This document shows, one piece after another, positions 7,080-38,407 of a stretch of 41,514 nt of DNA (position 1 is the first letter of the stretch; every line of letters starts with the position of its first letter). The notes under the pieces are model-generated. The model was not told where the DNA came from. It saw only the letters and a program-made list of their open reading frames with translations, and ran no database searches. The position numbers and the translations under genes are program-made. Source of the DNA: a virus (Duplodnaviria > Heunggongvirae > Uroviricota > Caudoviricetes). The stretch lies in the IMG/VR virus record IMGVR_UViG_2690316276_000005; one strand, 5' to 3'.

Positions 7080-7115
7080 ATTCACCCCACAAAAAAGCCC
7101 GCCTGAACCGGCGGG

Positions 7116-16594: not shown

Positions 16595-16596
16595 GC

Positions 16597-18016: not shown

Positions 18017-18019
18017 GAT

Positions 18020-20585: not shown

Positions 20586-20670
20586 GACTGGCCTCCGGTG
20601 TCACGTAAGCACCATGCACGAAAATCAGTACGACGGTTAACCAGTCCCTGTGAGCGTTCGCCGCCGCTGT

Positions 20671-21412: not shown

Positions 21413-21600
21413 TGTATCATCTCTCGTTGTTTTTTCTTCTCCGGCTCCGGCATTTCCACCTCCTGTCCGGCTTCCAGAAATACCTGTCGGCAGAGTCCGG
21501 GGTTGGCATCCAGCACCTTTTCGGTGACGCCCTGCGTCGTGCCGTAGTACCGGAAACAGAGCGAATCCACGGTGTCGCCTTCCAGTGTCTTCACTTTCAT
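21403..21600 (-). CDS. Tail protein X (P2 gpX-like, LysM-like)
   Basis: MKVKTLEGDTVDSLCFRYYGTTQGVTEKVLDANPGL... resembles P2 X as recalled; internal start of ORF 21403-21633. Confidence 0.75.
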   Translation of the reverse strand: MKVKTLEGDTVDSLCFRYYGTTQGVTEKVLDANPGLCRQVFLEAGQEVEMPEPEKKKQREMIQLW

Positions 21601-22103
21601 CAGCACAACTCCGCAAAGATTCGCGGGCGGCACAGAATGTCAGAGATGGCCCAGCTCACATCGCGCCACAAATCCGATGTCTGTATATCCAGTGCGTCCG
21701 CCCGGCGGTCGCCCTTGTCCGTTGTGTCCGCATCGCGGTAACGCTCCAGAATCAGGGCGCGTGTGGCGGTATAAACAGCATTGCGCCAGTGCCAGAGATT
21801 GACGCTTTCTCCGTTAATTACAGGTGCCGGAACATCGGCCAGCGTCTGATGGCCAGCCGCCTGCTGTTCCTGCTGCCATGCTTCCAGCTCGCGGGTAACG
21901 TGTGCCACGGCCCCGGTGGCGGTATGCAGCAGGCGGGAGGTGGTCACGCGGCCCGGCAGTCGTACCGCCAGACGCAGCTCGCGCAGCACAATATCCGGCC
22001 AGAATGCACCCGCTGAAATACGGGTATCGCCATCTTCGGTGTCGGTGATGTCGTCCTCTGCGGGTCCGGGTTCAGTTCTGGCAACCATACTCATGGGGTT
22101 CAC
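21600..22103 (-). CDS. Head completion / stabilisation protein (P2 gpL-like)
   Basis: 167 aa; ...GAFWPDIVLRELRLAVRL...ADVPAPVINGESVNLWHWRNAVYTATRALILERYR...DLWRDVSWAI... Confidence 0.8.
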   Translation of the reverse strand: MNPMSMVARTEPGPAEDDITDTEDGDTRISAGAFWPDIVLRELRLAVRLPGRVTTSRLLHTATGAVAHVTRELEAWQQEQQAAGHQTLADVPAPVINGESVNLWHWRNAVYTATRALILERYRDADTTDKGDRRADALDIQTSDLWRDVSWAISDILCRPRIFAELC

Positions 22104-22195
22104 TCCTGAAAAAATCGGGCGGTGGGTGCGCGGTGTAAACGGTCACGGAGCCAAACCGGAACACCGCGCACGCCGCCCGCTGACGGGGTCAGTCG

Positions 22196-22996
22196 TTAAC
22201 CGCGCTTCGCCTTCTGCGTCGCGGTGGTTTTTCGTGTTGCAGGCTTCCGCGTTGTCTTTTTACTTTCGCTGCTTTCGTCCTGCGCCTGCTGTGCGCTGGC
22301 GTCTTCTGGTGCGGCTGCGGAATCGGCTTTTTTCAGGGCGCGGGAAAGGGTTGCAATCTCGCGTTTCACACCTGCGTTCTGGTTCAGATGCATCGCTTCG
22401 CGCAGCAGCTTCAGTGATGAGGCCATGCTGTCCGCATCGCTCAGGCCACGGCGGGCAAAGGCGCACGCCTTGCATAATTTGGCGCGCACTTCGTCCGGCA
22501 TATCCTGGTTGGCGACAATTTCCCAAAGTGTGTCCAGTGGTTCGATAAAGACGGACAAATCCGCGTCGGCATCCGTCCCGGCCTGCGTCAGTACCGGATT
22601 GCAGATTTCTTCGGTCAGCACTGTGGCAGCAGTACGGCCAAAGTTATCCGGCATGATGAGGTTGTGACGGACCGCATACGCACCAATACGCAGCGCAAGC
22701 GGAAGATCGCCGCAGTCAATCGCCCACACCATCAGCGTGGCAATCACTTCGTCCTGTTGCCCGCCGTCAGCCTCCAGCGTTCCCTCAATCCAGCCGGAAA
22801 AGTCCGGCAACAACGCTTTTTTGATGTCGGCTTTCGCGCTTCTGGCCTGTACGCCCTTAAGCCGGGCCTGTGCCAGACGCAGACGATACAGCACCTCTTC
22901 ATGCGCGGTACGCGCGGCGTGGTCCACACCTTCATTCGCCCGGCCTGCGCGCTGTGCCATCACGTTCTGCCAGTGTTGCTGTGCAGGAGTAATCAT
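22196..22996 (-). CDS. Terminase small / endonuclease subunit (P2 gpM-like)
   Basis: 266 aa; ...DMPDEVRAKLCKACAF...AGVKREIATLSRALKK... and basic C-terminal tail; position between N and L. Confidence 0.8.
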   Translation of the reverse strand: MITPAQQHWQNVMAQRAGRANEGVDHAARTAHEEVLYRLRLAQARLKGVQARSAKADIKKALLPDFSGWIEGTLEADGGQQDEVIATLMVWAIDCGDLPLALRIGAYAVRHNLIMPDNFGRTAATVLTEEICNPVLTQAGTDADADLSVFIEPLDTLWEIVANQDMPDEVRAKLCKACAFARRGLSDADSMASSLKLLREAMHLNQNAGVKREIATLSRALKKADSAAAPEDASAQQAQDESSESKKTTRKPATRKTTATQKAKRG

Positions 22997-23041
22997 TTTT
23001 TCTCTCCGTTACAGGCGGGCATGATGCCCGCCGTGAGTTGA

Positions 23042-24094
23042 TTAGCTGTCGGCGAACTTCAGGCCAGTGACCATCGCGCACTTGCCATAGTCTTCAACGA
23101 CATAAGCGTCATTGATGGACTGGTAGGTGGCGATGCGGTTGTATTCCGGTTCGTCTTTCATCAGACGACGCATTGAACCTTTCTGCCAGTAAATCGACAG
23201 GTTGTTGAATGAGGTGATCAGCATCGTTGCATCCGGGAAGAACGGTGCAAGGAACACACCCAGCCCGCCAATGGTGCGCGATGACAGGATGAGCTGCCCG
23301 GCAAGTAATTCCGCATTGGGATTCTGGCCGCTGATGCTGTTCAGCACTGGCAGACGCAGCGAGTTAAACAGGTTGCGCCCCATAATCACCACGAGGTCGT
23401 CAGCTTCCTTGTGCCATTCATCCAGCAGAGATGAGCGCGCGTCCTGTACCAGTGCATCAGGGTTCGCGTATTTACCCGCGTGCGCCACGGTGTTGTCCAT
23501 GTTGCGGGAAGTCAGCGTCACGTCATTCATTACGCGCTCGCTGGCATTGGTTCTGATGTGCTCCAGCCACCCCACGTTAACGTCCTGAAGCAGCTTGTTG
23601 GTGCTGAAGTTGGACTCATCCGCGTGAGATGTGCCGTTGAAACCGATCATGATGCGGTCAAGTGCCACCTGTCGGGCAATCTGTGCGCTGATGCGGGACT
23701 GAAAATCGCTGTGTGCCGACCAGGCATCAAGCTGCGGATACGAAATAAACGTGTCGTAGTTCACCTGTTCGCACTGGTATTTGCGGTTTTTCAGATCAAC
23801 CACGTTATTCGGGTTACGGCGTTTTGTTCCGTCATAACTGGTATTTGTGCGTGCAATCGGTCCTGTGGTGTCCAGGAGGATTTTTTCGCCTTTCTGGTCG
23901 GTCACGCCGATCACGTTAATTTTTTTTGTAAGTTCGGTGCTATCCTTTGAGGCGTTTTCAAAACGTTGCTGCACCGCAGGTTCCACGGTAAATCGCGATA
24001 CCAGTGCAGAAACCGGGATATTGTTAAGCGACGCCTGCTGCGCCATATAGCAACCCAGCTTGTTGCGGGTAATATCTGACATCACCAGATTCAT
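23042..24094 (-). CDS. Major capsid protein (P2 gpN-like)
   Basis: 350 aa; ...FTVEPAVQQ...MIGFNGTSHADESNFSTNKLLQDVNVGWL...DLVVIMGRNL...LSIYWQKGSMRRLMKDEPEYNRIATYQSINDAYVVEDY... Confidence 0.85.
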   Translation of the reverse strand: MNLVMSDITRNKLGCYMAQQASLNNIPVSALVSRFTVEPAVQQRFENASKDSTELTKKINVIGVTDQKGEKILLDTTGPIARTNTSYDGTKRRNPNNVVDLKNRKYQCEQVNYDTFISYPQLDAWSAHSDFQSRISAQIARQVALDRIMIGFNGTSHADESNFSTNKLLQDVNVGWLEHIRTNASERVMNDVTLTSRNMDNTVAHAGKYANPDALVQDARSSLLDEWHKEADDLVVIMGRNLFNSLRLPVLNSISGQNPNAELLAGQLILSSRTIGGLGVFLAPFFPDATMLITSFNNLSIYWQKGSMRRLMKDEPEYNRIATYQSINDAYVVEDYGKCAMVTGLKFADS

Positions 24095-24117
24095 AAAAAA
24101 TTTGCTCCTTTGTCTTA

Positions 24118-24954
24118 TCAGAAGTCAGCCAGCTGGTCGGAGGCTGCGCCCGTTGCGGTGAACCGGTTCTGCGGATCGCCGTCCTGCGTGCGCAGTTTTT
24201 CCTTCAGTGCTGTCAGCTCCGTGGTCAGTAAAGTGATTTTCTGGCTGTCCTGCTGATGGCGTGTTTCCAGCGCATTAAAACGGTCGATAATGTCGGCCTG
24301 TGACGTTGCGACGCTTTCCACCGCTTCCTGAATACGGGAGAAACTGGCGTCATCCGCTTTGCGGCCACGACCAATAATCCCCATTACGCGGTTAAACCAC
24401 TGGGTGCCTTCTTCCTGGCGTTGTTCTGCCATTTCGATGATTTCAGACTCGATGGCTTCGGAGATAAGCGGTGCTTCACCCTGGATACTGTTGAACGTCA
24501 TCACCGCCTGACGTTGCTGTGCCGTGAATTTCAGGCGCTCAGTGCCCAGGCTTGCCGGGGTGTCGGTCATCGCCAGCCCGACCAGATAGGCGCGCCCGTT
24601 AACGGAGAACTGCGGGTGCAGTTCGATACTGGAATAGATTTTCTTGCCGTCCGCGACAAGCTGCTTCATGCGCTCGGTCGGTTCGATTTCTGCATACAGC
24701 GCAGTACGTCCGGCCAGCGGACCTTCCGTAATGTCTTCCGTACTCAGTGCGGTGACATCGCCCATTGCGGAAAATTCGCTTGACGGGCATGGCGAGAGAT
24801 AGTGCTCAACGTTCACGCGGGCAGCGTAAACATCCGGGTTGAAGTTCTCGGCGGCTTCACGCAGATGCACCGGACTGATTTCACGGCCATCAACAGTTGA
24901 TCCGGAGACAGCCACGCGAAACTTTTTGCGGGATGTCTTTTTTTCATTAGCCAT
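24118..24954 (-). CDS. Capsid scaffolding protein (P2 gpO-like)
   Basis: MANEKKTSRKKFRVAVSGSTVDGREISPVHLREAAENFNPDVY...; internal start of ORF 24118-24987; divergent from terminase P. Confidence 0.8.
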   Translation of the reverse strand: MANEKKTSRKKFRVAVSGSTVDGREISPVHLREAAENFNPDVYAARVNVEHYLSPCPSSEFSAMGDVTALSTEDITEGPLAGRTALYAEIEPTERMKQLVADGKKIYSSIELHPQFSVNGRAYLVGLAMTDTPASLGTERLKFTAQQRQAVMTFNSIQGEAPLISEAIESEIIEMAEQRQEEGTQWFNRVMGIIGRGRKADDASFSRIQEAVESVATSQADIIDRFNALETRHQQDSQKITLLTTELTALKEKLRTQDGDPQNRFTATGAASDQLADF

Positions 24955-25108
24955 AGTTTTTGCCCCTCTGACTGGTTCTTCAGTCATGATGGCAAAGCGT
25001 AACAGGCTGATACAAAGGGCTTTTGTTGTAAGAAAACGGCCAGAACAGGGGGTTAAGGAGAACGGTTTCGCGCGCGGGTAATCTTCCTGTAATTACTCAG
25101 GGGGAGCA

Positions 25109-26860
25109 ATGATTCAGGACGCTTTTGTGCGCCAGCGTGCGCGGCAACTTTACTGGCAGGGTTATCCGCCCGCAGAAATATCACGTCTGATGGGAATAAA
25201 CCCGAACACGATTTATGCGTGGAAAAAACGCGACCAGTGGGATGAAACGCCACCCGTGCAGCGTGTCACGCAGTCCATCGATGCGCGCCTCATCCAGCTT
25301 ACTGAAAAACAGAATAAAACAGGTGGTGACTTTAAGGAAATAGACCTGCTGACCCGGCAGCTTAAAAAACTGCATGATGGCCAGCCGGATGCGACGGCCA
25401 CAGGAAAGAAAGGCCGGGCGAAAAAACTCAAAAATCATTTCACGCCGGAACAGATTGCCGCACTGCGGGAAAAAATCATCAGCAGGCTGGAGTGGCATCA
25501 GCGGGGCTGGTTTGACTCCCTGACGCTTTGCAGGGAAGCCGGGATACGTAACAGGATGATCCTGAAATCCCGACAGATTGGGGCGACCTGGTATTTTGCA
25601 CAGGAAGCACTGCTGATGGCGCTGCGTGACGATGTGGCACAACCTTACCAGCGTAACCAGATTTTTTTGTCTGCGTCGCGTCGTCAGGCGTTCCAGTTTA
25701 AAAGCATTATTCAGAAGGCCGCGGCTGAAGTCGATGTGGAGCTGAAAGGGGGCGATAAAATCATCCTCTCCAACGGCGCAGAGATGCATTTTCTCGGCAC
25801 TTCTGCTGCGACGGCGCAATCTTACACGGGCAATTTTTATTTTGATGAATTTTTCTGGGTCAGTCGCTTTGCTGAACTGCGCAAGGTGGCTGGCGCTATG
25901 GCAACCCTCAGCGGACTGCGGCGCACCTGCTTCTCCACGCCATCCACCGAAACGCACGAGGCATACGCCTACTGGAACGGCGACCGCTGGAACGAGAAAA
26001 AGGCCGCGCATAAACGCCAGCGTTTTTCTGTGGACTGGAAAACGCTGCATAACGGGCTTATCTGCCCTGACCGGACGTGGCGGCAAATTGTCACGCTGGA
26101 AGATGTGGTTAATCACGGCTGGAAACACACCGATATTGATGAAATTCGTGATGAAAACACCGAAGACGAGTTCCGCAATCTCTATATGTGTGAGTTTGTC
26201 CGCGAAGGGGAATCGGCATTTAACCTGAATATCCTGATTGGCTGCGGTGTTGACGGATACGACGACTGGAAAGACTGGAAACCCTTTGCCCCCCGCCCGA
26301 TGGGGAATCGTCCGGTATGGATTGGGTATGACGCAAACGGCAGCAGTGGTAACGGCGACAGCGGCGCTGTGTCCGTGGTGGTTCCTCCGGCTGTTCCTGG
26401 TGGTCGTTTCAGAACGGTGGAGACGCGACGCGTTCAGGGGCTGGAATTTGAAGAGCAGGCCAGAGTTATTGAAGAGTTCACGTATCGCTACAACGTGGAA
26501 CACATCGGCATTGATGCGACGGGAGGGCACGGGGATGCCGTCTATCAGATAGTGAAACGGTTTTTTCCCGCCGCCATCCCTTACACCTTCACGCTGTCAT
26601 CAAAACGGTCGCTGGTACTGAAAATGCTGCAAATAATGCGTGCCGGGCGGTGGGAATACGATCGCGCCGAACGCGAGCTGGTTGCGGCCTTTAACGCCGT
26701 GCGTAAGGTGAAAACACCGGGCGGTTTTATCACTTACGAAACGGACCGCGCGAGGGGGATCAGCCACGGCGACCTTGCGTGGGCAACCATGCTTGCTGTC
26801 ATTAACGAACCGATTGGCGGCGAAGGAGAAAACGAGCGTTTCACGGTTATGGAGTTCTGA
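25109..26860 (+). CDS. Terminase large (ATPase) subunit (P2 gpP-like)
   Basis: 583 aa; ...KSRQIGATWYFAQEALLMAL..., ...KTGGDFKEIDLL..., ...HGDLAWATMLAVINEP... Confidence 0.9.
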   Translation: MIQDAFVRQRARQLYWQGYPPAEISRLMGINPNTIYAWKKRDQWDETPPVQRVTQSIDARLIQLTEKQNKTGGDFKEIDLLTRQLKKLHDGQPDATATGKKGRAKKLKNHFTPEQIAALREKIISRLEWHQRGWFDSLTLCREAGIRNRMILKSRQIGATWYFAQEALLMALRDDVAQPYQRNQIFLSASRRQAFQFKSIIQKAAAEVDVELKGGDKIILSNGAEMHFLGTSAATAQSYTGNFYFDEFFWVSRFAELRKVAGAMATLSGLRRTCFSTPSTETHEAYAYWNGDRWNEKKAAHKRQRFSVDWKTLHNGLICPDRTWRQIVTLEDVVNHGWKHTDIDEIRDENTEDEFRNLYMCEFVREGESAFNLNILIGCGVDGYDDWKDWKPFAPRPMGNRPVWIGYDANGSSGNGDSGAVSVVVPPAVPGGRFRTVETRRVQGLEFEEQARVIEEFTYRYNVEHIGIDATGGHGDAVYQIVKRFFPAAIPYTFTLSSKRSLVLKMLQIMRAGRWEYDRAERELVAAFNAVRKVKTPGGFITYETDRARGISHGDLAWATMLAVINEPIGGEGENERFTVMEF

Positions 26861-27906
26861 TGAGCAGAAAAAATAAAAAAGTGCGCATGAGTTCACGCAT
26901 TGATCTCGCTGATGCGCTCAGGAAAGAATCGTCGCTCAGTGCATTCACATTTGATGGTCCTTACCGCCTGACCGGGCATGACCTGCTGGACAATATGTAC
27001 TGTGCTGATAACGGGCGGTGGTATGAAACCCCGGTGGACTGGTACGGTCTGGCAAGAGCTGCCCGGCAAACGTCCTGGCATCAGTCTGCGCTTTACTTTA
27101 AGCGCAATGTATTGCTCGGCTGCTATATTCCGCACCCGCTGCTTTCCCGGCAGGATTTCTCGGCGCTGGCGCTGGACTGGTTTGTGTTCGGTAACGCATT
27201 CCTTGAGCTTCGGAGCAATATGCTCGGCGAACCGCTTAAATTACGGCACGCCCTGGCGAAATACATGCGACGCGGAAGCGATCTTGAATCATGGTGGTAT
27301 GTGCAGGATGGCAAGGATGCGTTTCAGTTTCGTCCTGGCAAAGTGTGCCACCTGATGAATCCGGATATTAACCAGGAAATCTACGGCATGCCGGAATATC
27401 TTGGCGCATTACTCTCGGCCAGCCTTTCTCATTCGGCGGACATGTTCAGAAAACTGTACTACGACAACGGATCCCACGCCGGGTGCATCATCTACATCGG
27501 TGCAGCGCAGGTAAACCGCGAAAGCATGGACTCCCTGAAAGAAACGCTACAGGGGGCACGTGGTGGTGGTGCGTTTAAAAACGTGCTCATTCATGCGCCC
27601 AACGGGGGCAAAGAGGGGGTGCAAATTTTGCCGTTCCAGCAGATCACCGCAAAGGATGAGTTCATGAATGTTAAGGCGGCATCCCGTGATGATGTGCTGG
27701 CTGCGCACCGCGTTCCGCCGCAACTGATGGGGGCGATGCCGGGCGAAAAAAGTGCGTTTGGTGATGTGGAGAAGGCCGCGCGGGTTTACGCAATTAACGA
27801 GCTGATGCCCGTCATGGAGGCCATGAAGCACATCAATGACTGGCTTGGCGAAGAGGTGATCCGCTTTAACCCTTACGCACTGTTAGACACCCAGCCCACA
27901 TCCTGA
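26860..27906 (+). CDS. Portal vertex protein (P2 gpQ-like)
   Basis: 348 aa; ...FVFGNAFLE...PDINQEIYGMPEYLGALLSASL...AHRVPPQLMG...FGDVEKAARVYAINELMP...; start overlaps P stop (ATGA). Confidence 0.85.
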   Translation: MSRKNKKVRMSSRIDLADALRKESSLSAFTFDGPYRLTGHDLLDNMYCADNGRWYETPVDWYGLARAARQTSWHQSALYFKRNVLLGCYIPHPLLSRQDFSALALDWFVFGNAFLELRSNMLGEPLKLRHALAKYMRRGSDLESWWYVQDGKDAFQFRPGKVCHLMNPDINQEIYGMPEYLGALLSASLSHSADMFRKLYYDNGSHAGCIIYIGAAQVNRESMDSLKETLQGARGGGAFKNVLIHAPNGGKEGVQILPFQQITAKDEFMNVKAASRDDVLAAHRVPPQLMGAMPGEKSAFGDVEKAARVYAINELMPVMEAMKHINDWLGEEVIRFNPYALLDTQPTS

Positions 27907-27933
27907 CGCGCTTCGCTTGTCTGCTGCTTCGCC

Positions 27934-27956
27934 GGGGCATAAAAAATTTATGCCCC
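27934..27956. terminator. Strong hairpin just downstream of the portal gene
   Basis: GGGGCATAAA-AAA-TTTATGCCCC: 10-bp perfect stem flanked by A/T. Confidence 0.5.
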
Positions 27957-28397
27957 GACTCTCCAGCTCCTGTATCAGTCAGATAATTTCACGACGCTTT
28001 CCTGCTGATTGCCATCATCGACAGTCAGACTCTTACGCAATCCCACCTCGTTGACTGCATATTCTCGCCGTCTCAGTGCGATTTTGACGGCCTTACCTTT
28101 CACCCCATCAAATCAAAAGCCCTCACGTCTTTTTCACGCTCAGCGTGAGAAATACAGCCATTCTGTTGTATCTCTGCGACATCGTTCAGGGAATGCTATT
28201 TACCCCCTGAAACGCGGGCTGTTCCCCCGTCACCTGCGCGCAGAAAAAACGCGTTTTTTTGTGCATGCACGGATCCTTGACGGATCCAGCCGCCACGCGG
28301 GCCGGAAGGGCAAAAAGTCGTTCAAAAAAATTGTGCAAATTTGTGCACTATTGTGCATTTATAAAATCAACTAAAAAACACCTAGTGTGACTTACCT

Positions 28398-28583
28398 CTA
28401 CCACTCGATCGGCACGTAGTCATTAAGTTCCGGAGACCAATTGCACTTTTCACATCTGTGTTTTCCATTCTGGCAGATACATAAACGATAACGGCCACAA
28501 TGCGGGCACCCATTTTCACCATTATCATAATCACCGAGCGACCATTCCTGCATAAGCAGCTCTTCTTCATCATCATTTAGCAT
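28398..28583 (-). CDS. Small Cys-rich (zinc-ribbon-like) protein, function unknown
   Basis: 61 aa with CPHCGRYRLCICQNGKHRCEKC; last gene of a co-oriented cluster between replication gene A and portal Q; GC visibly below the flanking structural genes. Confidence 0.5.
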   Translation of the reverse strand: MLNDDEEELLMQEWSLGDYDNGENGCPHCGRYRLCICQNGKHRCEKCNWSPELNDYVPIEW

Positions 28584-28597
28584 TAATCCCCCTTGAG

Positions 28598-28837
28598 CTA
28601 TTTACTCTTCTCGGCCCTCAAAATCATACGAGAACCATCATCCAGCTCCCAATTAATTTCACCGCCTTCTGCCATGACTAGATGCCAAACGAGTTGAGCG
28701 GCCTCGTTGGTTACATCGCGACCGCGATCATTTCCTACGCGGCGTTTTGTTCCGTCTCCTAAGTCACGCATTTTTGCCAATACGATGGTTTTTGATAGCG
28801 GTGAAAAACCAAGCTGTAGTCGTGCTGAATTACTCAC
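28598..28837 (-). CDS. Hypothetical protein (79 aa)
   Basis: Start overlaps the stop of the upstream 174-aa ORF by 4 nt (operon-like coupling). Confidence 0.45.
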   Translation of the reverse strand: MSNSARLQLGFSPLSKTIVLAKMRDLGDGTKRRVGNDRGRDVTNEAAQLVWHLVMAEGGEINWELDDGSRMILRAEKSK

Positions 28838-29358
28838 TGGCTGCCCCCTTTGTACTGTGTTAACTCTTCCTGCTCCTGCATCATGCGATTGACCTGAACG
28901 CGTGTGCGTCGAACGGCAAAATTAAATTGAAACATGAGCCGGAACATTTCTGATGCTTCCGTGTGAGCATCACGGATAGGTGACAGGCGGTACAGTTCTG
29001 CCTCCGTAGCTTGTTGAATCAATGACAGATCAAATTGAAGTGCGGGTCTGGTACATTTTGCACATCTGGCAGCAAGCTCCGGTATTAGTCTCTTAACGAA
29101 GGTGTTTTGCACCGCTTTGTTGATTTGTGTCTGCATCCAAATCGCAAATTTCAGCGAACGCATAAGTTTGATAGCCTCGGGCAGCGGCAGATAGATCATG
29201 CTGGTAGATTTGGGTGGTTGGTGAACCATCTTCACGGATACGCGATTTCGCAGCGTTCGGAAAATCGTGTTCCCAACAACAGCTTCTACGGATACAGGAC
29301 AGGGAGCCAGACCAGCCCGCAGTGCTTCTTTCATTAGCATGTATTCGTATTTTTTCAT
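28834..29358 (-). CDS. Hypothetical protein (174 aa)
   Basis: Uninterrupted ORF, first of three coupled small genes; no family recognised by eye. Confidence 0.5.
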   Translation of the reverse strand: MKKYEYMLMKEALRAGLAPCPVSVEAVVGNTIFRTLRNRVSVKMVHQPPKSTSMIYLPLPEAIKLMRSLKFAIWMQTQINKAVQNTFVKRLIPELAARCAKCTRPALQFDLSLIQQATEAELYRLSPIRDAHTEASEMFRLMFQFNFAVRRTRVQVNRMMQEQEELTQYKGGSQ

Positions 29359-29418
29359 CGTGTTTTCCTCGTGCGGGGCGACAGTGCACCCCGATAAAAT
29401 TAAAAGCCGTCAAATTCG

Positions 29419-29730
29419 TCATTCAGGAAATAATGCCCGGATATTCCCTGCTATCTGACTGGTTATCTGTGCGGTTGGTACTGGCTGTGGCACGGGGCGT
29501 TCTGTCCTGGTTTGTGTCACCGATAACGCCTCATCGTCAGCCCATGCAGCCAGTCGGTAAGCCTCTGCTGGATTCATTTTCAGAAGTGCCAGCCCGGCCA
29601 GAAAAGCCACGCGTTGGCCGCTTTTGCGGGCTTCTGGTGTAAGGCTGCCCAGCCAGGCGCATGCTTCGCTTTCGTTCTTGACGGCCGCAGGCTTCAGATA
29701 GAAACTTATCCGTCTGGTTGGTGTCGTCAT
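29419..29730 (-). CDS. ParR-like ribbon-helix-helix DNA-binding protein (putative adaptor of the ParM-like ATPase)
   Basis: Starts 5 bp after the parM-like stop; about 103 aa; RRISFYLKP...ESEACAWLGSLT...RVAFLAGLALL resembles the R1 ParR N-terminal RHH pattern as recalled. Confidence 0.5.
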   Translation of the reverse strand: MTTPTRRISFYLKPAAVKNESEACAWLGSLTPEARKSGQRVAFLAGLALLKMNPAEAYRLAAWADDEALSVTQTRTERPVPQPVPTAQITSQIAGNIRALFPE

Positions 29731-29734
29731 TGGT

Positions 29735-30694
29735 TTACTCCTTGTCCATTGCGTACAGCCCATTAACCAGAGCAAACTGTGGCACCCCGTCCGCGATGAA
29801 AGTCGCATTAACTCCGCAGGCTTCGCGGATAGCGGGTGCCACAATCTCCGCCCCTCCACCGACAACCATCACCCGCCCGTAACCCGAAAAACCCGCCAGC
29901 GCGCGGATCACGCGTTGTTTCAGTGTTTCTTCCTTTTCACGAATAACCGCCATCAGGCTGGCGTAATGCGCGTCATTGTGGATGTGCTGGCGCAGCCAGG
30001 CTTCATCATGGCGATGTTCGATAATGGTATTGGCGATGTGGTGACTGGTGCGCATACCGTTAGTGGCCATCACCGACAGTACGGCATCGGCCATCAGAGA
30101 AACGCCTACGTGTGGATCGCAAAACACCTGGCTGATACCTGCCAGTTGCCCCTGAACCTTTGCCACATCCAGCGTGGTTCCGCCCAAATCCACAATCAGC
30201 AGGGATTCAAACGGACTCATGTCAGCCAGTGCCTTAAAGCCAGCCGGAATGGATTCAGGCATAACCCGCACGTTACGGATAGTGAATGCTTCGCCGTTCT
30301 GGTACTCCACCGGGCGCATAACGTTCGCTTTTTTGCGGTTGATGTTGGCCATGTCCGGCTGTGCGTTTGTGTCGAAATACTCGCTCAGTGGCAGGGTGAC
30401 AACCACATCCACCTCCTGTGGCGTGATGCCTGATTTGACCAGCGCGTGATGAATGGCAATGACATTTACATCGCTGTACTGGTATTGCGTGTCGGTTGTC
30501 TGGACAAAGCGATCGCTGACCGGATCAAAACCATAGCGCACGCCATCAAGCATGTAGTTCGCGGGCTGCATGCCACCGAACGGCGCAGACCATTCCGACT
30601 TGAAGCTGTTCGGGCTGATGGCGTTGCGGCGTTCGCCGTTCTCAGTCCATGCCAGCTTGATGTTGGTGGAGCCGTCGTCGATACAAATTTTCAT
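29735..30694 (-). CDS. ParM/StbA-like actin-fold ATPase
   Basis: [35 protein letters not shown]... parallels R1 ParM [21 protein letters not shown]...ISPNSFKREW; also ...[13 protein letters not shown]... and ...[12 protein letters not shown]... phosphate/adenosine motifs. Confidence 0.85.
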   Translation of the reverse strand: [319 protein letters not shown]

Positions 30695-30723
30695 GTCGCT
30701 TTTCCTTATGTTGATTAATTAAT

Positions 30724-30839
30724 CGTTTACGGGATTCTGAAATCCCGTTTTTGCCTGTTTTGTGCGCGCTTCATATATCGCTGCGCGTTTTTTGCTCATT
30801 TACGGGATTCGTGAGTCCCGTTTCTGTCTGTTTTTTGTT
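30724..30839. repeat. Two direct repeats of about 40 bp, each containing a palindrome (ACGGGATT-N4-AATCCCGT); candidate parC-like centromere or origin
   Basis: Repeat 1 at 30724-30764 (palindrome 30729-30748); repeat 2 at 30797-30839 (palindrome 30802-30821, one arm mismatch). Directly upstream of the parM-like start and overlapping the 3' end of gene A. Confidence 0.5.
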
Positions 30840-33593
30840 TCCACTGGTCAGGCCACCCCGCAGCAGGTCTGCTTTGCGGCGGGCGCGTTCAGTGGTTTCA
30901 CTGATTCTCTGTGCGTGCTCTGCGTCGCGGATGGCGCGCAGCATGTCAGAAAGCACGGTAACGGGTGTTTTCATGGTGTTCTGGTCCTGCTGAAGTGTGG
31001 ATGCCAGGCGTGCGGCGGCTTCAGGGTCTGATGCCCCCAGCTGTGTCAGATAGCTGGCGACCGGGTTATGGCGGATCTCCGTGCTGCTTACGCCATGATT
31101 ACGGCTCAGGCGCTGCCAGAGCTGCGTGATTCGGCTGTCCGGGCGGGTATCCGGTTTGCGTACAATTTCAAATCCCTGCGGTGCAATGATGCTGCCGTCA
31201 ACGTACAGACTGCCGCCCCGTAACAGGTGCTGCATCTGTTGTTCACCGATATGCAGGCCGAGAGATTCAGCAGACTCCCGCCATTCTTTAGCGAGTAATT
31301 CGTGGTTATCAGGCAAAGGCCGCTGCTGTTTGCGGCTCTGTGTCCAGCTCTGCATTTCATCACTGCTGTTTTTTGCCTGTTTGTCACGAAGCGAACGCAT
31401 CAGCGCCCGGCGTTCGTGCCGTTTCAGTGAGCGCATCCATTCATCCACATCAACGCCGTCAGGGAGCTGCGGCCACGGTGCTGGCCGTTCTTCCGGCTGT
31501 TCTGTCCCGTTGTTGTCCGTTTCCTGTACACGGGGACAGTTATTGCCACGAGTCCAAGGGGCGGCAGGGCCGCCCTGAAGGTCAAAACCATTTTCGCGGG
31601 CGCTGTCTTCCGCTTCCGGTTTGCGTCTTACCAGCTTCCAGTTATCCGGATGCGTGCACACACGGGAGGATTCCCCGATGAGTGGTGACCAGATCCCGTA
31701 AATCTGTACGCTCTGTTCGCCGTAATCGTTCAGCTCATCGGCGAGGTCGTAGGCGGTGCGAATCAGGTAGTCTTTGCGTGGAACAAGTACGCCGCCCTGT
31801 TTCTCTATGTAGGTGGCAAAACATCCGGCATCAGCGGCGGCAAGAACCGCATCCATTGCGTCATCCTTCAGCCGTTGCGGGCCTTCCGGGTTGCGTGCCA
31901 TCTGGCTGGCAAGGCGGCGCAGTTCACGCCATACCTGGCGGGAGGGGATGCCAAAGAACTGGAACTGGCGGACCCGGTGAAGGCGCGCCCAGCCGATGGC
32001 GCGTTCCACGCTCTCGGCCATTGATTTTCCGGTTTCGTGGTCAACGCGTGGCTTGCCCGTTTTCGGGTCGATGCCATCCACGGCGCGGCTGTCCAGGTTT
32101 TTCCCGATGTAGGTGGCGATGTAGCTGGTTGGCGTGCCTTTTGAGCCGTCTACATACTCCGCCTTAAAGCGCGGAGTTATGTCATCGCCCAGCTCGTGAC
32201 GATCTTCCTGAATGGCAATATCGCGGGTGTGGGACACAATGGTGTCGATTTCTTCCGGATGAGCAAAGACCATCATATGCCAGTGCACGGTGCCGTCATG
32301 GTGAGGCTCCGCCGTGCGGATGCCATACCAGCGCAGGCCGTCGCGGTTCAGTTTTTTGCGGACCGTCGCAAAAAACGTGTTAACCAGGTAATCGCTGGAG
32401 TCGCGCATTGTGGCCCCGTTCCATTTGGGATTCGGATGACCGTTCTCCGTTGTGGCGTGGTATTTTGACGGGCAGGTGACAGTCAGAAACACCGCTTTGT
32501 CGCCACGGGCTTCGGCCAGAAGTTCCAGCCCCTTCATGGTGGCCATCATTTCTGCCTTACGGTGAACCGGGTTACTTACTCCCGCGTAATACACCGTCTC
32601 GAGATCAATCGTGAACCCGTCTTCATTTTCCAGCATGAAACTTTTCAGGAAATCGCGTGTTTTCTCGCGCTGTGCGCGAAACTCGCTTAACGCGTCCTGG
32701 CTCAGATAGGGCGATGTTTTTCTGGAAACCAGACAGGCGGCGCGAAGTTGTTCTTCTCTCCACTCGCAACGTAACAGCCACAGTTTGCGTTTCCACCATT
32801 CCGCACAGGTCAGGCGAAGGATTGCGCCCGGCAGCAGTTCTGTGTCCGGTTCGTGCCTCCGGTCTTTGTCTGTTGTCAGTGCGTCATAATGCGGAGGCAT
32901 GGCGTGTAAGTGTAACGCCATGCGGGCCAGCATCTGATACGCCTTCAGCGTTACATCCATGGTCAGCTCGCCATCAGTCGCGCCAAAACCATCGCAGAGT
33001 TTTTCGAAGGTGCTGCTGAACATCGCCGCCGTCATGGTGGCCAGCGTCTGTATCTGGTGTTTGTTGAGTTGCGGCAGGTAAAGCAAATCGTCCAGGCGTT
33101 CACGTCCGGCAAGGGAGCGATAACCCGGTGTCAGCCAGTGTCCGTCAGTGCGATCCAGACGTTCGAATATTTTGCGCAGGGTTCCGCGTGCATAGCGTTC
33201 CGCCTGCCAGCTCTTTTTGCCTTTCCGGCGATCGGCTTCCTGTTTTTTGCGCAGGAAGGAGAGGTGGCGAATAAGCGGATCGCGCAGATAGGACGGCAGC
33301 AGGCGCAGCGAGGCCATGGCTTCATCCACCGCGCCGCGTGCCTGTTTTCTGGCGTCTCCTGCCAGTGTGATGGTTTTGTCCTGTTTTTCCTGTGCGTCCA
33401 GGCTTTTATTAATCAGGTTGCCCAGTGGCGTGGCGGAGAACGCCGCATCAGCCATTTCCTGGCGGCGCTCGTTCTCTGCCCGGTGGGCATCCAGCCAGGA
33501 GGAAAGCGCGGATTCAGGAGCGGGGATCCCCGTTCCTTCACGCCCCACTGCGTGGCGCGGTTGTTGCCAGTCCCTGATGTACTCTGCCGTCAT
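30771..33593 (-). CDS. Replication initiation endonuclease (P2 gpA-like, rolling-circle HUH family)
   Basis: 940 aa; ...DGTVHWHMMVF... (HUH-type motif) and ...TPTSYIATYIGKN... (active-site Tyr region); position between the early genes and the cos-proximal accessory region. Confidence 0.8.
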   Translation of the reverse strand: MTAEYIRDWQQPRHAVGREGTGIPAPESALSSWLDAHRAENERRQEMADAAFSATPLGNLINKSLDAQEKQDKTITLAGDARKQARGAVDEAMASLRLLPSYLRDPLIRHLSFLRKKQEADRRKGKKSWQAERYARGTLRKIFERLDRTDGHWLTPGYRSLAGRERLDDLLYLPQLNKHQIQTLATMTAAMFSSTFEKLCDGFGATDGELTMDVTLKAYQMLARMALHLHAMPPHYDALTTDKDRRHEPDTELLPGAILRLTCAEWWKRKLWLLRCEWREEQLRAACLVSRKTSPYLSQDALSEFRAQREKTRDFLKSFMLENEDGFTIDLETVYYAGVSNPVHRKAEMMATMKGLELLAEARGDKAVFLTVTCPSKYHATTENGHPNPKWNGATMRDSSDYLVNTFFATVRKKLNRDGLRWYGIRTAEPHHDGTVHWHMMVFAHPEEIDTIVSHTRDIAIQEDRHELGDDITPRFKAEYVDGSKGTPTSYIATYIGKNLDSRAVDGIDPKTGKPRVDHETGKSMAESVERAIGWARLHRVRQFQFFGIPSRQVWRELRRLASQMARNPEGPQRLKDDAMDAVLAAADAGCFATYIEKQGGVLVPRKDYLIRTAYDLADELNDYGEQSVQIYGIWSPLIGESSRVCTHPDNWKLVRRKPEAEDSARENGFDLQGGPAAPWTRGNNCPRVQETDNNGTEQPEERPAPWPQLPDGVDVDEWMRSLKRHERRALMRSLRDKQAKNSSDEMQSWTQSRKQQRPLPDNHELLAKEWRESAESLGLHIGEQQMQHLLRGGSLYVDGSIIAPQGFEIVRKPDTRPDSRITQLWQRLSRNHGVSSTEIRHNPVASYLTQLGASDPEAAARLASTLQQDQNTMKTPVTVLSDMLRAIRDAEHAQRISETTERARRKADLLRGGLTSGNKKQTETGLTNPVNEQKTRSDI

Positions 33594-33599
33594 AGTGAT

Positions 33600-33965
33600 T
33601 TACTTCGTCATGCCATTCAGGGTGTCGCGGCAGACTGTAGCCAGCCGCTGAATTTCCAGCACGGTGTCTTCTGTGTCGGCATGGCGATGTGTGATGCGGA
33701 TGCTGTCGGCAATCACATCGACGATTGCAGAGGATGGGCGCTGGTAAATGCCAATAACGGACGGGGTGCCACCTTCAATGCGGTAAAGCCTGTAATTTCC
33801 CTCGTGGCTGTCAATCATGTAGCGACCATCAATAACAATCTTTCCGTCAGCGAGCTGCGGTACAGGCAGGGATTTCAGGTACATGTCATAACGATCACGC
33901 ACGCGAGCGGCAAGATCACGCTCTGTGTTGAGCAGGTATTCAAGAAAGTCGTTGGCGAGAATCAT
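33600..33965 (-). CDS. Hypothetical early protein (121 aa), immediately upstream of gene A
   Basis: ORF ends 7 bp before the A start; occupies the P2 gene B position but no similarity was recognised. Confidence 0.45.
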   Translation of the reverse strand: MILANDFLEYLLNTERDLAARVRDRYDMYLKSLPVPQLADGKIVIDGRYMIDSHEGNYRLYRIEGGTPSVIGIYQRPSSAIVDVIADSIRITHRHADTEDTVLEIQRLATVCRDTLNGMTK

Positions 33966-34106
33966 TGCGGCAATCCTCTTGTTACAGATGTGCGAAGGCC
34001 TCCCGCCGCAAGGTGCAGGAAAGGCCCGGAACAGGAATTAATGGAGTTTGTTTTGCTGCCGGATGAGCTGCTGAAGCCCGACGTGGTTTCCGGCAGTTGG
34101 AGGTGC

Positions 34107-34352
34107 TCATGCTCTGATTTCCCTCAGTAGCTGGTTGAACATCTGGGTTAGTGGGTTGCTACACCCAAACGGCATCAGGTTTACCTGATAAGAAAAGCGA
34201 CCGCCTGTTTTGCGCTCTTTTCTTGTGACTAAACCGCTGCGCCAGAGACGGCGTAGCTCCGCATTAATGGTTGTGGTTGGTGTATTCAGTGCTGCGGCGA
34301 TTTCTCCACTGCTACAACCCGGATTGGCAGCGATGTAGTCCAGAATGGTCAT
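34107..34352 (-). CDS. Small winged-helix-like DNA-binding protein
   Basis: 81 aa; ...SSGEIAAALNTPTTTINAELRRLWRSGLVTRKERK... is a helix-turn-helix / wing pattern. Confidence 0.5.
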   Translation of the reverse strand: MTILDYIAANPGCSSGEIAAALNTPTTTINAELRRLWRSGLVTRKERKTGGRFSYQVNLMPFGCSNPLTQMFNQLLREIRA

Positions 34353-34552
34353 CTGCGTGACTCCTGTACCTGTCTGATAAGATTCACCTGCACCACGTTG
34401 GTGGCGCAGAAGTAAGTGCCGTCAGTGAGATAGATATGATGTGCATCCTTTTCTGAACGGTGTTTGTCGATTGTGGTAATCAGGCGTTCGTCAACTTCGT
34501 ATTCACGTCCTCTGGAGGTGAAACGAACGACAGGAAAATGCTTAATTGCCAT
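34349..34552 (-). CDS. Hypothetical small protein (start taken at internal Met)
   Basis: MAIKHFPVVRFTSRGREYEVDERLITT...; stop overlaps the next start by 4 nt. Confidence 0.4.
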   Translation of the reverse strand: MAIKHFPVVRFTSRGREYEVDERLITTIDKHRSEKDAHHIYLTDGTYFCATNVVQVNLIRQVQESRR

Positions 34553-34748
34553 TACGCCTCCTTGGCGTGTGCGAATACCTCCGCGAATGCGGATTGTTTT
34601 CACATTTTCTTATTTAACCTGGGGTCTTATTTGCGCGGTTATTCTTCAGTGAAAAAGCGTTCAATCTTTTTTACTGAATTAATAATTCGCATAATCCCAA
34701 TGGCGCAGACCACCGAAATAATCAGAACAAGCCATGAAATAAATATAC

Positions 34749-34994
34749 TCATGCGATATTTCCCAGCTTATACGGTTCAATATGTTCCCCGCATTCTGCG
34801 GCACAGATCAGCTCGGAAAGTTCGTTAAGTGCATCCAGATCATCAGCGTAAAAAGCCACGTCATACAGACTTCGGATTGCTCTGGTCAATGAGTCACGGG
34901 CCGCACGTTCAGCATGAGCGCCTGATGCACTTAAGCGAAAATAAAAACGCTCAAGTGCTTTGTTAATGAGAGTTTTATATTCTTTGCCCATCAC
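34749..34994 (-). CDS. Hypothetical small protein (81 aa)
   Basis: ORF in the early-region string, co-oriented with gene A. Confidence 0.4.
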   Translation of the reverse strand: MMGKEYKTLINKALERFYFRLSASGAHAERAARDSLTRAIRSLYDVAFYADDLDALNELSELICAAECGEHIEPYKLGNIA

Positions 34995-35002
34995 AACGCC
35001 CT

Positions 35003-35290
35003 TTAATCTGCTTTCTGTATTTCAGCTTCTGAATCCATACAAATAATTTCGATATAGGGTTCATCGCCATTAACCTGGCGTGCCTTTTCATCTTCGCTGA
35101 TGATTTCTCGTACGGTCTGGTACGGAAGTTCCACAAGCAGTCGCGTGCCGTTCAGATAAACGTAAGTGGCTTCGTCGGCTCCGTTTTTACCCGCCGGAGT
35201 CACTCCGTCAATAGCGGATGCACGTAATAACAGTTCACCGCGAAAATCAATAAAACGGATAAATACACCTTGTGCATTGTCTTTGGTCAT
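35003..35290 (-). CDS. Hypothetical small protein (start at internal Met)
   Basis: MTKDNAQGVFIRFIDFRGELLLRASAIDG...; co-oriented early gene. Confidence 0.4.
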   Translation of the reverse strand: MTKDNAQGVFIRFIDFRGELLLRASAIDGVTPAGKNGADEATYVYLNGTRLLVELPYQTVREIISEDEKARQVNGDEPYIEIICMDSEAEIQKAD

Positions 35291-35300
35291 AAAGCACCTG

Positions 35301-35639
35301 TTATAAATCAGCCTGTTTAATAAAACTTTGCCCGCGAAGCAGACGATCAACCGTGCGAAGTGCTTCGTATAATGTGAAATCCTGCCCGAACTGATTGTCG
35401 CCACAGCTCAGTGCAAAAATGCGGTTTCCGGTAAACGGATTGCGTGGGCATTTGTGGATCACGATTCCAGCTTTCTCAATCAGCCAGGCGTGCTCGCCGA
35501 TTTGTTTTACTGGGTAGCCATCCGGCGTTGCGTGTGTATCACTCAGGCTGTAGCGGATGTTGCTGCGTGATGCACTGGTAGTGAAACGGTTAGCGTGGCG
35601 TTCTGTTCCGGTACAAAAATTACGGCGTTGCTTCAGCAT
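35301..35639 (-). CDS. Hypothetical early protein (112 aa)
   Basis: ORF in the early operon; no family recognised. Confidence 0.4.
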   Translation of the reverse strand: MLKQRRNFCTGTERHANRFTTSASRSNIRYSLSDTHATPDGYPVKQIGEHAWLIEKAGIVIHKCPRNPFTGNRIFALSCGDNQFGQDFTLYEALRTVDRLLRGQSFIKQADL

Positions 35640-36027: not shown

Positions 36028-36339
36028 ATGTCAATAGAGATATCAAAGAAGCTAAAAGCAATTCGAGAATCTGAGGGGCTTAGTCAGGCAAAGTTCGCGG
36101 ATTCAATAGGTATTGCGGTTGGTACGGTTAAGCAATACGAGACTGGTATTCGAGGTGTGGGAACGGAGGTTTTACTGAAAATCACAATGCACCCGGAATT
36201 TAAAAAATACACTACGTGGTTGATGAGTAACGAAACAAATGAGGCTGCTGGGCAGATCAGTCCTTCTCTCTCCCCTGATGGGCCAGAAAACACATCGTCT
36301 TCTCAAAAATCCCGCAAGACTGGCACACAGCCCGGCTAA
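36028..36339 (+). CDS. Immunity repressor (P2 C-like)
   Basis: MSIEISKKLKAIRESEGLSQAKFADSIGIAVGTVKQYETG...MHPEFKKYTTWLMSNETNEAAGQISP parallels P2 C (...TPQFTKYTLWFMTNQIAPESGQIAP...) as recalled. Confidence 0.75.
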   Translation: MSIEISKKLKAIRESEGLSQAKFADSIGIAVGTVKQYETGIRGVGTEVLLKITMHPEFKKYTTWLMSNETNEAAGQISPSLSPDGPENTSSSQKSRKTGTQPG

Positions 36340-36388
36340 TCATGGAACGCTGGGGGCATGGTGGTCTTGTAACGCTGGGGCTTCACGA

Positions 36389-37366
36389 ATGAGCATAAAA
36401 TCAATTCCGGGAGGGTATCTTCTTGACATGCGTCCTGAGGGGCGTAAAGGCAAACGCATTCGCAAAAAATTTAAAACGAAATCGGATGCAGTTTTATATG
36501 AGCGGTGGGTGCTGGCGCAACAGCATAACAATGAGTGGAAAGGAAACTCCATTGATCGCCGTCCGCTGTCAGTGCTTATTGACTTGTGGTGGAAATACCA
36601 CGGCCAGCTAATGAAGTCAGGGCATAACACGCGCCTTAAATTGCTGCGCTTGAGTGAGGCAATGGATGACCCGTGCGTGCATAAACTTAATACAACGATG
36701 CTCACCGAGCTACGTGTGTCCAGGATAGAGCAGGGGATACAGCCCAGCACCATAAATCGAGAGATTGGGGCGTTAAGCGCGATGTTTACCGCACTCATCT
36801 CATCCGGCCATTTTCTTAACGATAACCCCGTTCAAGGCCTTAAAGGAATGAAGGTTAACGAGCGTGAAATGGGATATCTGAGTAAGTCTGAATGTGTTCA
36901 GTTGCTGGATGCACTGGCTGAAAATCCCGATGAACGGCTGGCCGTCGAAATCCTTCTGTCGACCGGGGCGCGATGGGGCGAGGTAGCGGCACTGGAGCAG
37001 CGCCGTGTTCTTCATTGTCGAATCACTTTTTCAAAAACGAAGAACAGCAAAAACCGTACCGTTCCTATTTCTGAAAGCCTGTTTGAAAAGATCAAAAAAC
37101 GGGGCGGGAAACTGGTGTTTCCGACGCTGGATTATTCATTGGTTCGCGATGTCATCAAAACGGTCGCACCTGATGTTCCTGACGGCCAGGCTGTTCATGC
37201 GCTGCGCCACACCTTCGCCAGTCATTTCATGATGAACGGCGGCAATATTCTGACGCTCCAGAAAATTCTGGGGCACGCAAAGATTCAGACAACGATGATT
37301 TATGCCCATCTTGCGCCGGATTACTTGCAGGATGCGGTGAGGTTTAATCCCTTGGGAGGAATGTAA
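36389..37366 (+). CDS. int: Tyrosine integrase (P2-type)
   Basis: MSIKSIPGGYLLDMRPEGRKGKRIRKKFKTKSDA... N-terminal arm; catalytic region ...LLSTGARWGE...HALRHTFASHFMMNGGNILTLQKILGHAKIQTTMIYAHL (R..H-x-x-R..Y). Confidence 0.9.
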   Translation: MSIKSIPGGYLLDMRPEGRKGKRIRKKFKTKSDAVLYERWVLAQQHNNEWKGNSIDRRPLSVLIDLWWKYHGQLMKSGHNTRLKLLRLSEAMDDPCVHKLNTTMLTELRVSRIEQGIQPSTINREIGALSAMFTALISSGHFLNDNPVQGLKGMKVNEREMGYLSKSECVQLLDALAENPDERLAVEILLSTGARWGEVAALEQRRVLHCRITFSKTKNSKNRTVPISESLFEKIKKRGGKLVFPTLDYSLVRDVIKTVAPDVPDGQAVHALRHTFASHFMMNGGNILTLQKILGHAKIQTTMIYAHLAPDYLQDAVRFNPLGGM

Positions 37367-37368
37367 CT

Positions 37369-37869
37369 ATGGAAATAAAAAAACCTACAAAAAAAGAGTT
37401 ATATGACTATTTACTATCGAAATATATAGAAGATAAATGCAAAGAAGAAGCTGATGAAATCAATAAGAAGTCGATGAGTCGTGTCAAAAAACATAAAGAG
37501 CGGCTGATGGAGATTACGCCAGAAATCTTCTTCCGTTTCTTGTCTGAGAAGGGGGTCTCCAGTGTCTGCCCTTCATGTGGATCGTCGCGATTATCTGTTC
37601 CAGAAAGTATGGATCTTTGCTGGGATAAAAATAAGAAACCAGAAAATTTTAACAATCTACCCCTGGAGGAACAGAGTGAGTTAATTAAAGAGAACATAAA
37701 GCATTATGTATCTTATGCTTTTTTGGGTGATGTTAAGAGCATACCTGATATGCGCAAAACTTATTACACGCTGCATTGCCTGAATTGTGGTTACCTGAGC
37801 CTTTATCGTACGTCTGCGGTGCTGAAGTGGTTGGAGAAAGACAAAGCGCAGGATGGTGATAATGGGTAA
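37369..37869 (+). CDS. AT-rich hypothetical protein with two CxxC pairs (zinc-ribbon-like)
   Basis: 166 aa, very Lys/Glu-rich, CPSCG ... CLNCG; codon usage visibly AT-rich versus neighbours; starts 3 bp after int stop. Confidence 0.55.
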   Translation: MEIKKPTKKELYDYLLSKYIEDKCKEEADEINKKSMSRVKKHKERLMEITPEIFFRFLSEKGVSSVCPSCGSSRLSVPESMDLCWDKNKKPENFNNLPLEEQSELIKENIKHYVSYAFLGDVKSIPDMRKTYYTLHCLNCGYLSLYRTSAVLKWLEKDKAQDGDNG

Positions 37870-38407
37870 TGTAGCAAGAAATCTTTTCGGTAATTCAGCA
37901 GGTAGTGTGTCGCATTCTGAGCGTGATGTGCTTTATCATGGTGGCGATGGCGGCAGTAGTGGAGGCGGAATGTCAGATAAACTTGAAAGGCGAATTGAGC
38001 GGCTCGAAGGTGATTTATCGCTAACAAGAAACGACCTTGCGACGCTTGCTGAACGCACTACAAACCTCTCAACTAAAGCCGATGTTGGTGAGGTGAAAGG
38101 TGAACTCAAAGCAGACATAGCACATCTGAAAGGTGATCTTGAATGCGATATTGCGAATCTGAAAGGTGAGCTTAAATCTGATACAGCTAACCTGAAAGAG
38201 CAGCTCAAATCAGACATTAACAGCCTGAAGGGTGAGCTTACCGAAGCGATGGATAAACGCTTTGACAAGATTATGGATGAGATGAATCGGCGGTTTGACA
38301 AGGTTGATGATAATACGAAGTGGCGTTGGAGTGGCATTATTGTGCCAGTGTGCACAACCATTTTCACAGCGGCGGTTGCTGTATTTGTTGCTAAATTTGT
38401 TGGCTGA
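37853..38407 (+). CDS. Coiled-coil protein with C-terminal transmembrane anchor (XhlA-like architecture); likely true start near 37970
   Basis: Heptad-like repeats (LKGDLECDIANLKGELKSDTANLKEQLKSDINSLKGEL) and C-terminal hydrophobic helix IIVPVCTTIFTAAVAVFVAKFV. Confidence 0.55.
   Translation: MVIMGNVARNLFGNSAGSVSHSERDVLYHGGDGGSSGGGMSDKLERRIERLEGDLSLTRNDLATLAERTTNLSTKADVGEVKGELKADIAHLKGDLECDIANLKGELKSDTANLKEQLKSDINSLKGELTEAMDKRFDKIMDEMNRRFDKVDDNTKWRWSGIIVPVCTTIFTAAVAVFVAKFVG

Follow-up and report, generated by a model that had tools for sequence, protein, structure and literature searches.

What does a plasmid-type partition cassette do in a temperate phage that resides in the chromosome of its host? 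We address this question for an Escherichia coli prophage contained in IMG/VR virus record IMGVR_UViG_2690316276_000005, a stretch of 41,514 nucleotides (nt) that we refer to throughout as the window. Here two adjacent genes, parM and parR, directly follow the phage replication gene gpA, and a pair of palindromes upstream of parM makes up a candidate centromere (parC). We find that the cassette is a backbone part of P88-like and related P2-family temperate phages. The best explanation for its presence, which we put forward tentatively, is that it is a working type II (ParM/ParR/parC-type) cassette that segregates circular phage copies in a transient episomal phase. Both the cassette and its reading as a sign of an episomal state are already in the literature as remarks: Pfeifer et al. 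2021 (PMC7969092) suggested such a state as a possibility for P88, and Rousset et al. 2022 (PMC9122126) did so for a quarter of E. coli P2-like phages. What is new here are the selection data, the conservation across genera, the exact boundary with the neighbouring cargo hotspot and the two-site centromere candidate.

ParM and ParR are intact and under selection

An earlier note on this DNA, made from the letters alone, had proposed that the 319-amino-acid (aa) product of parM is a ParM of the plasmid R1 type, and database searches agree. The protein matches the Pfam StbA_N domain (2.7e-82) and the ParM C-terminal domain (1.3e-68), and a phmmer search against the PDB aligned residues 2–316 with R1 ParM (1mwk, E = 8.5e-93); these profile searches place the ATPase with ParM and not in another actin-fold family. 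All nucleotide-binding motifs, covering both the phosphate-binding and the adenosine motifs, are intact: DDGSTNIK (residue 6), MPESIPAG (residue 145), DLGGTTLD (residue 169) and GGGAE (residue 279). Purifying selection on parM, assessed on a sample of 85 related loci, is very strong, with a ratio of nonsynonymous to synonymous polymorphism (pN/pS) of 0.054 across 67 alleles, lower than that of the C-terminal half of gpA (0.229), and the open reading frame (ORF) is intact in 85 of 87 loci. Truncated forms of ParM, 188–261 aa long, also make up clusters P0006, P0009 and P0017, each of which has hundreds of members, including some from long contigs. In a minority of prophages, then, parM seems to be disrupted or wrongly called; in one phage record the gene is split into four pieces.

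The second ORF, parR, begins with an ATG located 4 nt past the parM stop codon. Its predicted likeness to ParR, with a ribbon-helix-helix N-terminus, was borne out by a match to Pfam Plasmid_stab_B (PF10784, 2e-23) and by a profile built from the phage ParRs and R100 ParR, which matches the ribbon-helix-helix ParR of pB171 (2JD3, E = 1.5e-13). A direct BLASTP comparison with R100 ParR gave 32% identity over 56 aa of the N-terminal domain (E = 2e-7). PHROG families 691 and 2515, both named ‘partition protein’, match the cassette proteins, with PHROG 2515 matching ParR at 2.3e-56, and no NCBIfam model scored above its cut-off for ParM or ParR. The AlphaFold (AF2) monomer model of ParR is of low confidence (predicted local distance difference test score, pLDDT, 58.8).

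The segments of ParR evolve as expected of a three-part adaptor, with pN/pS values of 0.15 in the N-terminal domain, 0.57–0.69 in the hypervariable linker and 0.07–0.21 in the C-terminal tail. In the tail, the motif (K/G)N(I/A)xx(L/F)FP can be aligned with KKNAMKLIN at the end of R100 ParR, with N96 and L100 being invariant between the phage and plasmid proteins. In the R1 system the C-terminal end of ParR is the part that contacts ParM, and the conserved phage tail is, on alignment, a putative ParM-binding tail. Across loci L014–L093, ParM varies little (approximately 99% identity), but ParR, with its hypervariable linker, falls into two allele types, TPEARKSGQRV and PASERSRAQRA; the palindromes upstream of parM do not differ between the two types.

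Two conserved palindromes form a candidate centromere

The earlier note had placed repeats at 30724–30839, and these are real: the region upstream of parM contains a 42-nt direct repeat with one palindrome in each copy (Table 1). The two palindromes are spaced 73 bp apart, have the arms ACGGGAyT and AATCCCGT, and are of the GGG-N10-CCC type. Counted strand-wise, the pattern is matched four times versus 0.26 expected by chance; in each ~13-kb E. coli-type locus it occurs at these two places only, and it was not found in the P2 segment examined (locus L013, record positions 25000–33593). The GGGATT/AATCC cores are retained in nearly all of 53 upstream variants and the loops vary. Taken as a single strand, the repeat span folds with z-scores of –5.5 and –5.0, and a search of positions 27900–31300 against Rfam returned no family match. 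When the arms were checked for compensatory substitutions, and the palindromes for variation in step with the ParR allele type, no consistent pattern was seen.

The same layout is found outside E. coli. Two sites are located at –128/–52 in Hafnia, where the upstream gene is not gpA, at –131/–59 in Plesiomonas and at –118/–55 in the Serratia/Enterobacter group, in which they take the form of two inverted arms that resemble the iterons of a related plasmid clade. Since the two-site position is conserved across five lineages, Hafnia without gpA upstream among them, the layout supports assigning the sites to the cassette, as a minimal candidate parC, and not to gpA or the origin. We also considered the palindromes as the replication origin itself and rejected this, because the homolog of the P2 nick site lies approximately 0.75 kb away and because the Hafnia sites keep their position without gpA upstream. 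The two-site candidate offers a small, directly testable target.

The ParMRC (parA/stb) systems of plasmids R1 and R100 provide the closest yardstick for the whole cassette. The phage ParM is about half identical to theirs over its full length and has the same ATPase motifs, parR directly follows parM, and the candidate sites lie just upstream of parM; with R100, the relationship extends to the 32% identical ParR N-terminal domain and a common ..N-A/I-x-x-L.. C-terminal tail. The phage cassette differs in that its carrier is a phage that integrates and has a rolling-circle initiator, and in its shorter ParR, which lacks part of the helical domain (103 versus 117 aa in R100). Furthermore, the R100 centromere is built of direct 11-bp iterons in two clusters that surround a promoter, whereas the phage has two palindromes and no promoter was found within its candidate centromere.

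The cassette follows gpA and precedes the variable cargo

The genes gpA, parM and parR are consecutive on the minus strand (29419–33593). That the module sits beside a rolling-circle gene in a P2-like prophage bearing an integrase, as the earlier note had read it, is confirmed by the domain matches of both proteins (Table 1). The gpA product is 30% identical to P2 gpA and longer (940 versus 761 aa), with a long C-terminal extension whose last codons contain the distal palindrome. Homology to the annotated nick site of P2 places the probable replication origin inside gpA, at about 31545–31575. A simple consensus scan of the gpA–parM interval, which a weak promoter may escape, detected no sigma-70-like promoter and no sense-strand terminator; nor did it detect an autoregulated promoter within the candidate parC, a feature of type II systems. 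Because no promoter or terminator was found between the two genes, the simplest inference is that parMR is co-transcribed with gpA from the early lytic promoter and would therefore be made only when the phage genome is extrachromosomal.

On its other side the cassette has a sharp border. Relatives cease to be similar at the stop codon of parR (29421), where the variable cargo begins, and therefore the cassette itself is not part of that cargo. The genes beyond parR differ in relatives and include, for example, a ClpX-type zinc-finger protein, HicAB and a KAP NTPase. By the earlier note, its reading would fall if the module belonged to the core of all P2-like phages with a known different role. 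The module is not part of such a core: the cassette opens the gpA–portal interval, and P2 has orf91, tin and old at the same position.

The nearest ParMs from outside E. coli (54–63% identity) are all encoded in P2-like prophages, those of Hafnia, Plesiomonas, Serratia and Enterobacter, and one gene order recurs in these four genera: gpA, 0–2 small ORFs, ParM, ParR (PF10784), cargo, portal. ParMs that are 52% identical or less come from plasmid, integrated-plasmid or integrative and conjugative element (ICE) settings. In a neighbour-joining tree the prophage ParMs form two groups with no split joining them, which leaves one or two captures.

The cassette is common in E. coli and almost always chromosomal

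The earlier note implied that such a module is rare and novel in this setting, which our data do not support. In addition to the published remarks on an episomal state and the PHROG families, RefSeq annotates the E. coli copies as ParM and a partitioning/stability protein, and the 1.6-kb region is present in 1308 of 5426 complete E. coli genomes (~24%). A cassette under strong selection is thus carried by about a quarter of sequenced E. coli. Among the 1456 places at which it occurs in these genomes, 1454 are chromosomal and two are on plasmids.

Among phages, 14 records carry the region (query 29300–30900, 1601 bp). P88 and other Xuanwuvirus members align over 92–93% of this query with 95–98% DNA identity, have a 99% identical ParM and the same gene order, making the window a member of the group; they differ from it in the cargo past parR and in the tail-fibre gene, which in the window is interrupted by a lambda-like tail block. 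Across the phage collection this ParM was encountered solely in P88-like phages and, at 48% identity, in phage-plasmid D6. Scanning genome contigs with ParM recovered three near-identical loci only, and of two scans of viral contigs the first recovered only near-identical E. coli-type loci and the second three loci; the diversity described above comes from exact-protein look-ups. One locus (L004) is on a 226-kb contig labelled as the Gram-positive Vagococcus sp. WN89Y (NZ_JBQPOM010000071.1) and its ParM shares 98% identity with that of the E. coli prophage, probably as a result of contamination or mislabelling.

The plasmid database PLSDB contains two phage-sized records with the cassette, the remaining matches being large replicons. 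One of them, the circular 34,461-bp ‘plasmid’ NZ_CP148288.1 (locus L002) of E. coli strain Z1323PEC0009, isolated from a cat, comprises a complete P88-like genome with integrase and is 100% identical over 12.5 kb to a chromosomally integrated prophage of another strain, Z1323HEC0067. This circle could be an episome or merely excised DNA. The other record, a 26.8-kb Shigella ‘plasmid’, was rejected as an episome, as it is a linear fragment with copies of the insertion sequence IS1.

Possible roles of the cassette

In the explanation that we favour, segregation of phage circles during a transient episomal phase, the cassette would stand at the end of the early replication operon, after gpA and less than about 1 kb from the origin, and would probably be made only during extrachromosomal replication of the phage genome, either post-infection or post-excision. 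ParR dimers would bind the two short sites upstream of parM (at about –125 and –52), the ParR C-terminal tail would capture the ends of ParM filaments, and the growing filaments would push sister phage circles apart. Each daughter cell would then inherit a copy in a transient episomal phase, which might correspond to a delay before integration, to a carrier state or to a lytic cycle that proceeds slowly. This proposal has precedents, by analogy, in srpMRC and AlpAC. The srpMRC locus of SXT/R391 ICEs lowers loss of the excised, rolling-circle-replicating form (PMC4489591); like the phage cassette, it is a ParM-type locus on a normally integrated element that replicates by rolling circle once excised, but SrpM and SrpR are only distant kin of R1 ParMR and the element is conjugative, SetCD-controlled and not a phage. 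If transient segregation is indeed what the cassette does, it would be the phage counterpart of SXT/R391 ICE partition and would matter for carrier states and for how efficiently lysogens form and how stably the prophage is kept. Several points weigh against it. Our literature searches found no experiment on the function of the cassette in a phage. P2-type lytic replication yields many copies, for which active partition seems unnecessary, and P2 and 186 do without such a module. The candidate centromere has two sites only, while plasmid relatives carry many direct iterons; the opposite strand of each palindrome resembles an intrinsic terminator, and the palindromes are weakened in some population variants with no clear compensatory pattern. 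Finally, co-transcription with gpA is deduced from signals missing in a simple consensus scan.

The filaments could instead serve a purely lytic purpose, positioning or spreading replicating circles within one cell for replication or packaging, with inheritance by daughter cells being irrelevant. The model for this is AlpC/AlpA of the Corynebacterium glutamicum prophage CGP3, which is induced early and needed for efficient phage DNA replication (PMC4446434). There too, an integrated prophage encodes an actin-like filament protein and a DNA-binding adaptor; the pair acts on excised CGP3 DNA, its induction comes early once excision has taken place, and the site bound by the adaptor is upstream of the operon (PMC4446434, PMC5539076). 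The location of the phage cassette at the end of the replication operon, beside the origin, would suit such a role, as would the strong purifying selection, given that the phage family is inducible (mitomycin C induction yielded P88). However, the phage ParM is close to plasmid-segregating ParMs and not to AlpC, which belongs to another actin-like family in a Gram-positive host and for which the role shown is efficient replication and transport, not inheritance; the parallel is an analogy without close sequence relation. Given also that P2 and 186 replicate well without the cassette, we regard a purely lytic role as unlikely, although positioning and inheritance would be separable only with mutants. 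Similarly doubtful is the reading, raised as a possibility by the earlier note as well as by Pfeifer et al. 2021 and Rousset et al. 2022, that P88-like phages persist as low-copy circular plasmids maintained by ParMRC as an alternative to integration. It can draw on the circular PLSDB genome with its integrated twin and on D6, a P1-like phage-plasmid with StbA-type partition, which is likewise a tailed temperate phage and uses a ParM of the same family (47.8% identity); D6, however, is a 91-kb plasmid prophage, whereas the element in the window is a ~35-kb phage that is found integrated. The more specific version, in which P88-like phages are facultative integrative phage-plasmids and the two-site centromere with ParMR would allow daughter cells to inherit the gpA rolling-circle replicon as an episome at low copy number, for example if attB is missing or already taken or while a carrier state is prolonged, is in our judgement improbable. 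Extrachromosomal maintenance in lysogens, the mark of a phage-plasmid, is not what the complete genomes display, and because of the 1454:2 ratio of chromosomal to plasmid locations a permanent plasmid prophage maintained by the cassette is disfavoured. The single circular record might just as well represent phage DNA that was excised or induced and then captured in the assembly, and the promoter scan showed none from which parMR could be expressed under repression. In the region examined we saw no plasmid-type theta replicon, the rolling-circle protein gpA being the only initiator found, and did not reproduce beyond gpA the ‘plasmid-like replication genes’ with which P88 was scored by Pfeifer et al. 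2021 (PMC7969092). Were a plasmid state real, P2-like phages would join the phage-plasmids and about a quarter of E. coli strains would carry a prophage that switches between chromosome and plasmid.

Two further explanations have far less to recommend them than segregation of circular copies. Since the cassette lies in the gpA–gpQ interval, a hotspot of anti-phage systems according to Rousset et al. (PMC9122126), it might be cargo directed against competitors, a lysogenic-conversion or defence/incompatibility set that destabilises ParMRC plasmids or related phages. This is very improbable: the variability starts only past the parR stop codon, the cassette is conserved and its position is unchanged from genus to genus, it shares the strand of the early operon and no promoter dedicated to it was detected, and PADLOC gave no match for ParM, ParR or the three cargo ORFs of the window. 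Moreover, ParR and its sites differ from those of R100, and cross-incompatibility with IncF plasmids is therefore not expected. Nor is there much to suggest an inactive relic of an old recombination between plasmid and phage. Such decay could account for the truncated ParM clusters and for the phage record with parM in four pieces, yet the selection data and the intact ORFs, together with intact catalytic motifs and a gene order kept across genera, make it scarcely credible.

Prophage context and neighbouring features

The host element is a P88-like (Xuanwuvirus, P2 family, Peduoviridae) E. coli prophage. Positions 15809–35603 match Escherichia phage P88 in blocks of 91–98% identity, with breaks at 20350–21406 and 28359–29418. 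The window copy is flanked by chromosomal-type genes: to the right of the integrase are btuC/btuE/btuD-type domain genes (FecCD permease, glutathione peroxidase, ABC ATPase). Positions 37369–38407, which separate the integrase from the btuC-like gene, hold two ORFs without a clear family, one of them coiled-coil-like, which may be prophage-end cargo or host genes. The coordinates of the cassette and its neighbours are collected in Table 1.

Table 1. Features of the partition cassette and its surroundings in the window
Feature	Position	Strand	Description
parR	29419–29730	minus	103-aa ParR/StbB adaptor: N-terminal RHH (ribbon-helix-helix)-type domain, variable linker, C-terminal tail NIRALFPE
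parM	29735–30694	minus	319-aa actin-fold ATPase, R1-type ParM, full length
Direct repeat, 42 nt	30723–30764 and 30796–30837 (span 30723–30837)		Copies 81% identical, one palindrome per copy
Proximal palindrome, 20 bp	30729–30748		ACGGGATTTCAGAATCCCGT; gpA–parM intergenic, ~–52 from parM ATG; candidate ParR-binding site (parC half)
Distal palindrome, 20 bp	30802–30821		ACGGGACTCACGAATCCCGT; within last gpA codons, ~–125 from parM ATG; candidate ParR-binding site (parC half)
gpA	30771–33593	minus	940-aa rolling-circle initiator, directly upstream of parM on the same strand; PF05840, 6.6e-131
P2 ori nick-region homolog	31545–31575	minus	Inside gpA; GCCGCCCCTTGGACTCGTGGCAATAACTGT versus P2 GCCGCGCCTCGGAGTCCTGTCAATAACTGT; ~0.75 kb from candidate parC
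Tyrosine integrase	36239–37366	plus	Int_N 2.1e-28, Phage_integrase 5.7e-20; prophage context, outside the cassette
Variable cargo	28398–29358	minus	174-aa ORF without family hit; DUF7446 ORF (phrog_1578); 61-aa zinc-ribbon ORF (phrog_24897)
Lambda-like block: tape-measure 3′ end			
Lambda-like block: L	14342–15040		
Lambda-like block: K	13593–14336		
Lambda-like block: I	13024–13695		
Lambda-like block: J	9484–12963		
Lambda-like block: lom	8817–9416		
Lambda-like block: stf N-terminal parts			

The P2-like tail-fibre gene H is split by approximately 10.1 kb of lambda-like tail genes that lie between 264-nt direct repeats (5422–5685 and 15804–16067). The ORF at 4176–7085 joins a lambda Stf N-terminus to the C-terminus of a P88-like fibre. 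The junction at ~15792/15804 is spanned in none of the 5426 complete E. coli genomes, and the block reflects a rare recombination event unless it is an assembly chimera; the prophage copy in the window may be defective. At the left end of the window, an ORF for an IS3-family transposase (1747–2565; rve, HTH_21) is located amid duplicated tail-fibre/tail-fibre-assembly cassettes.

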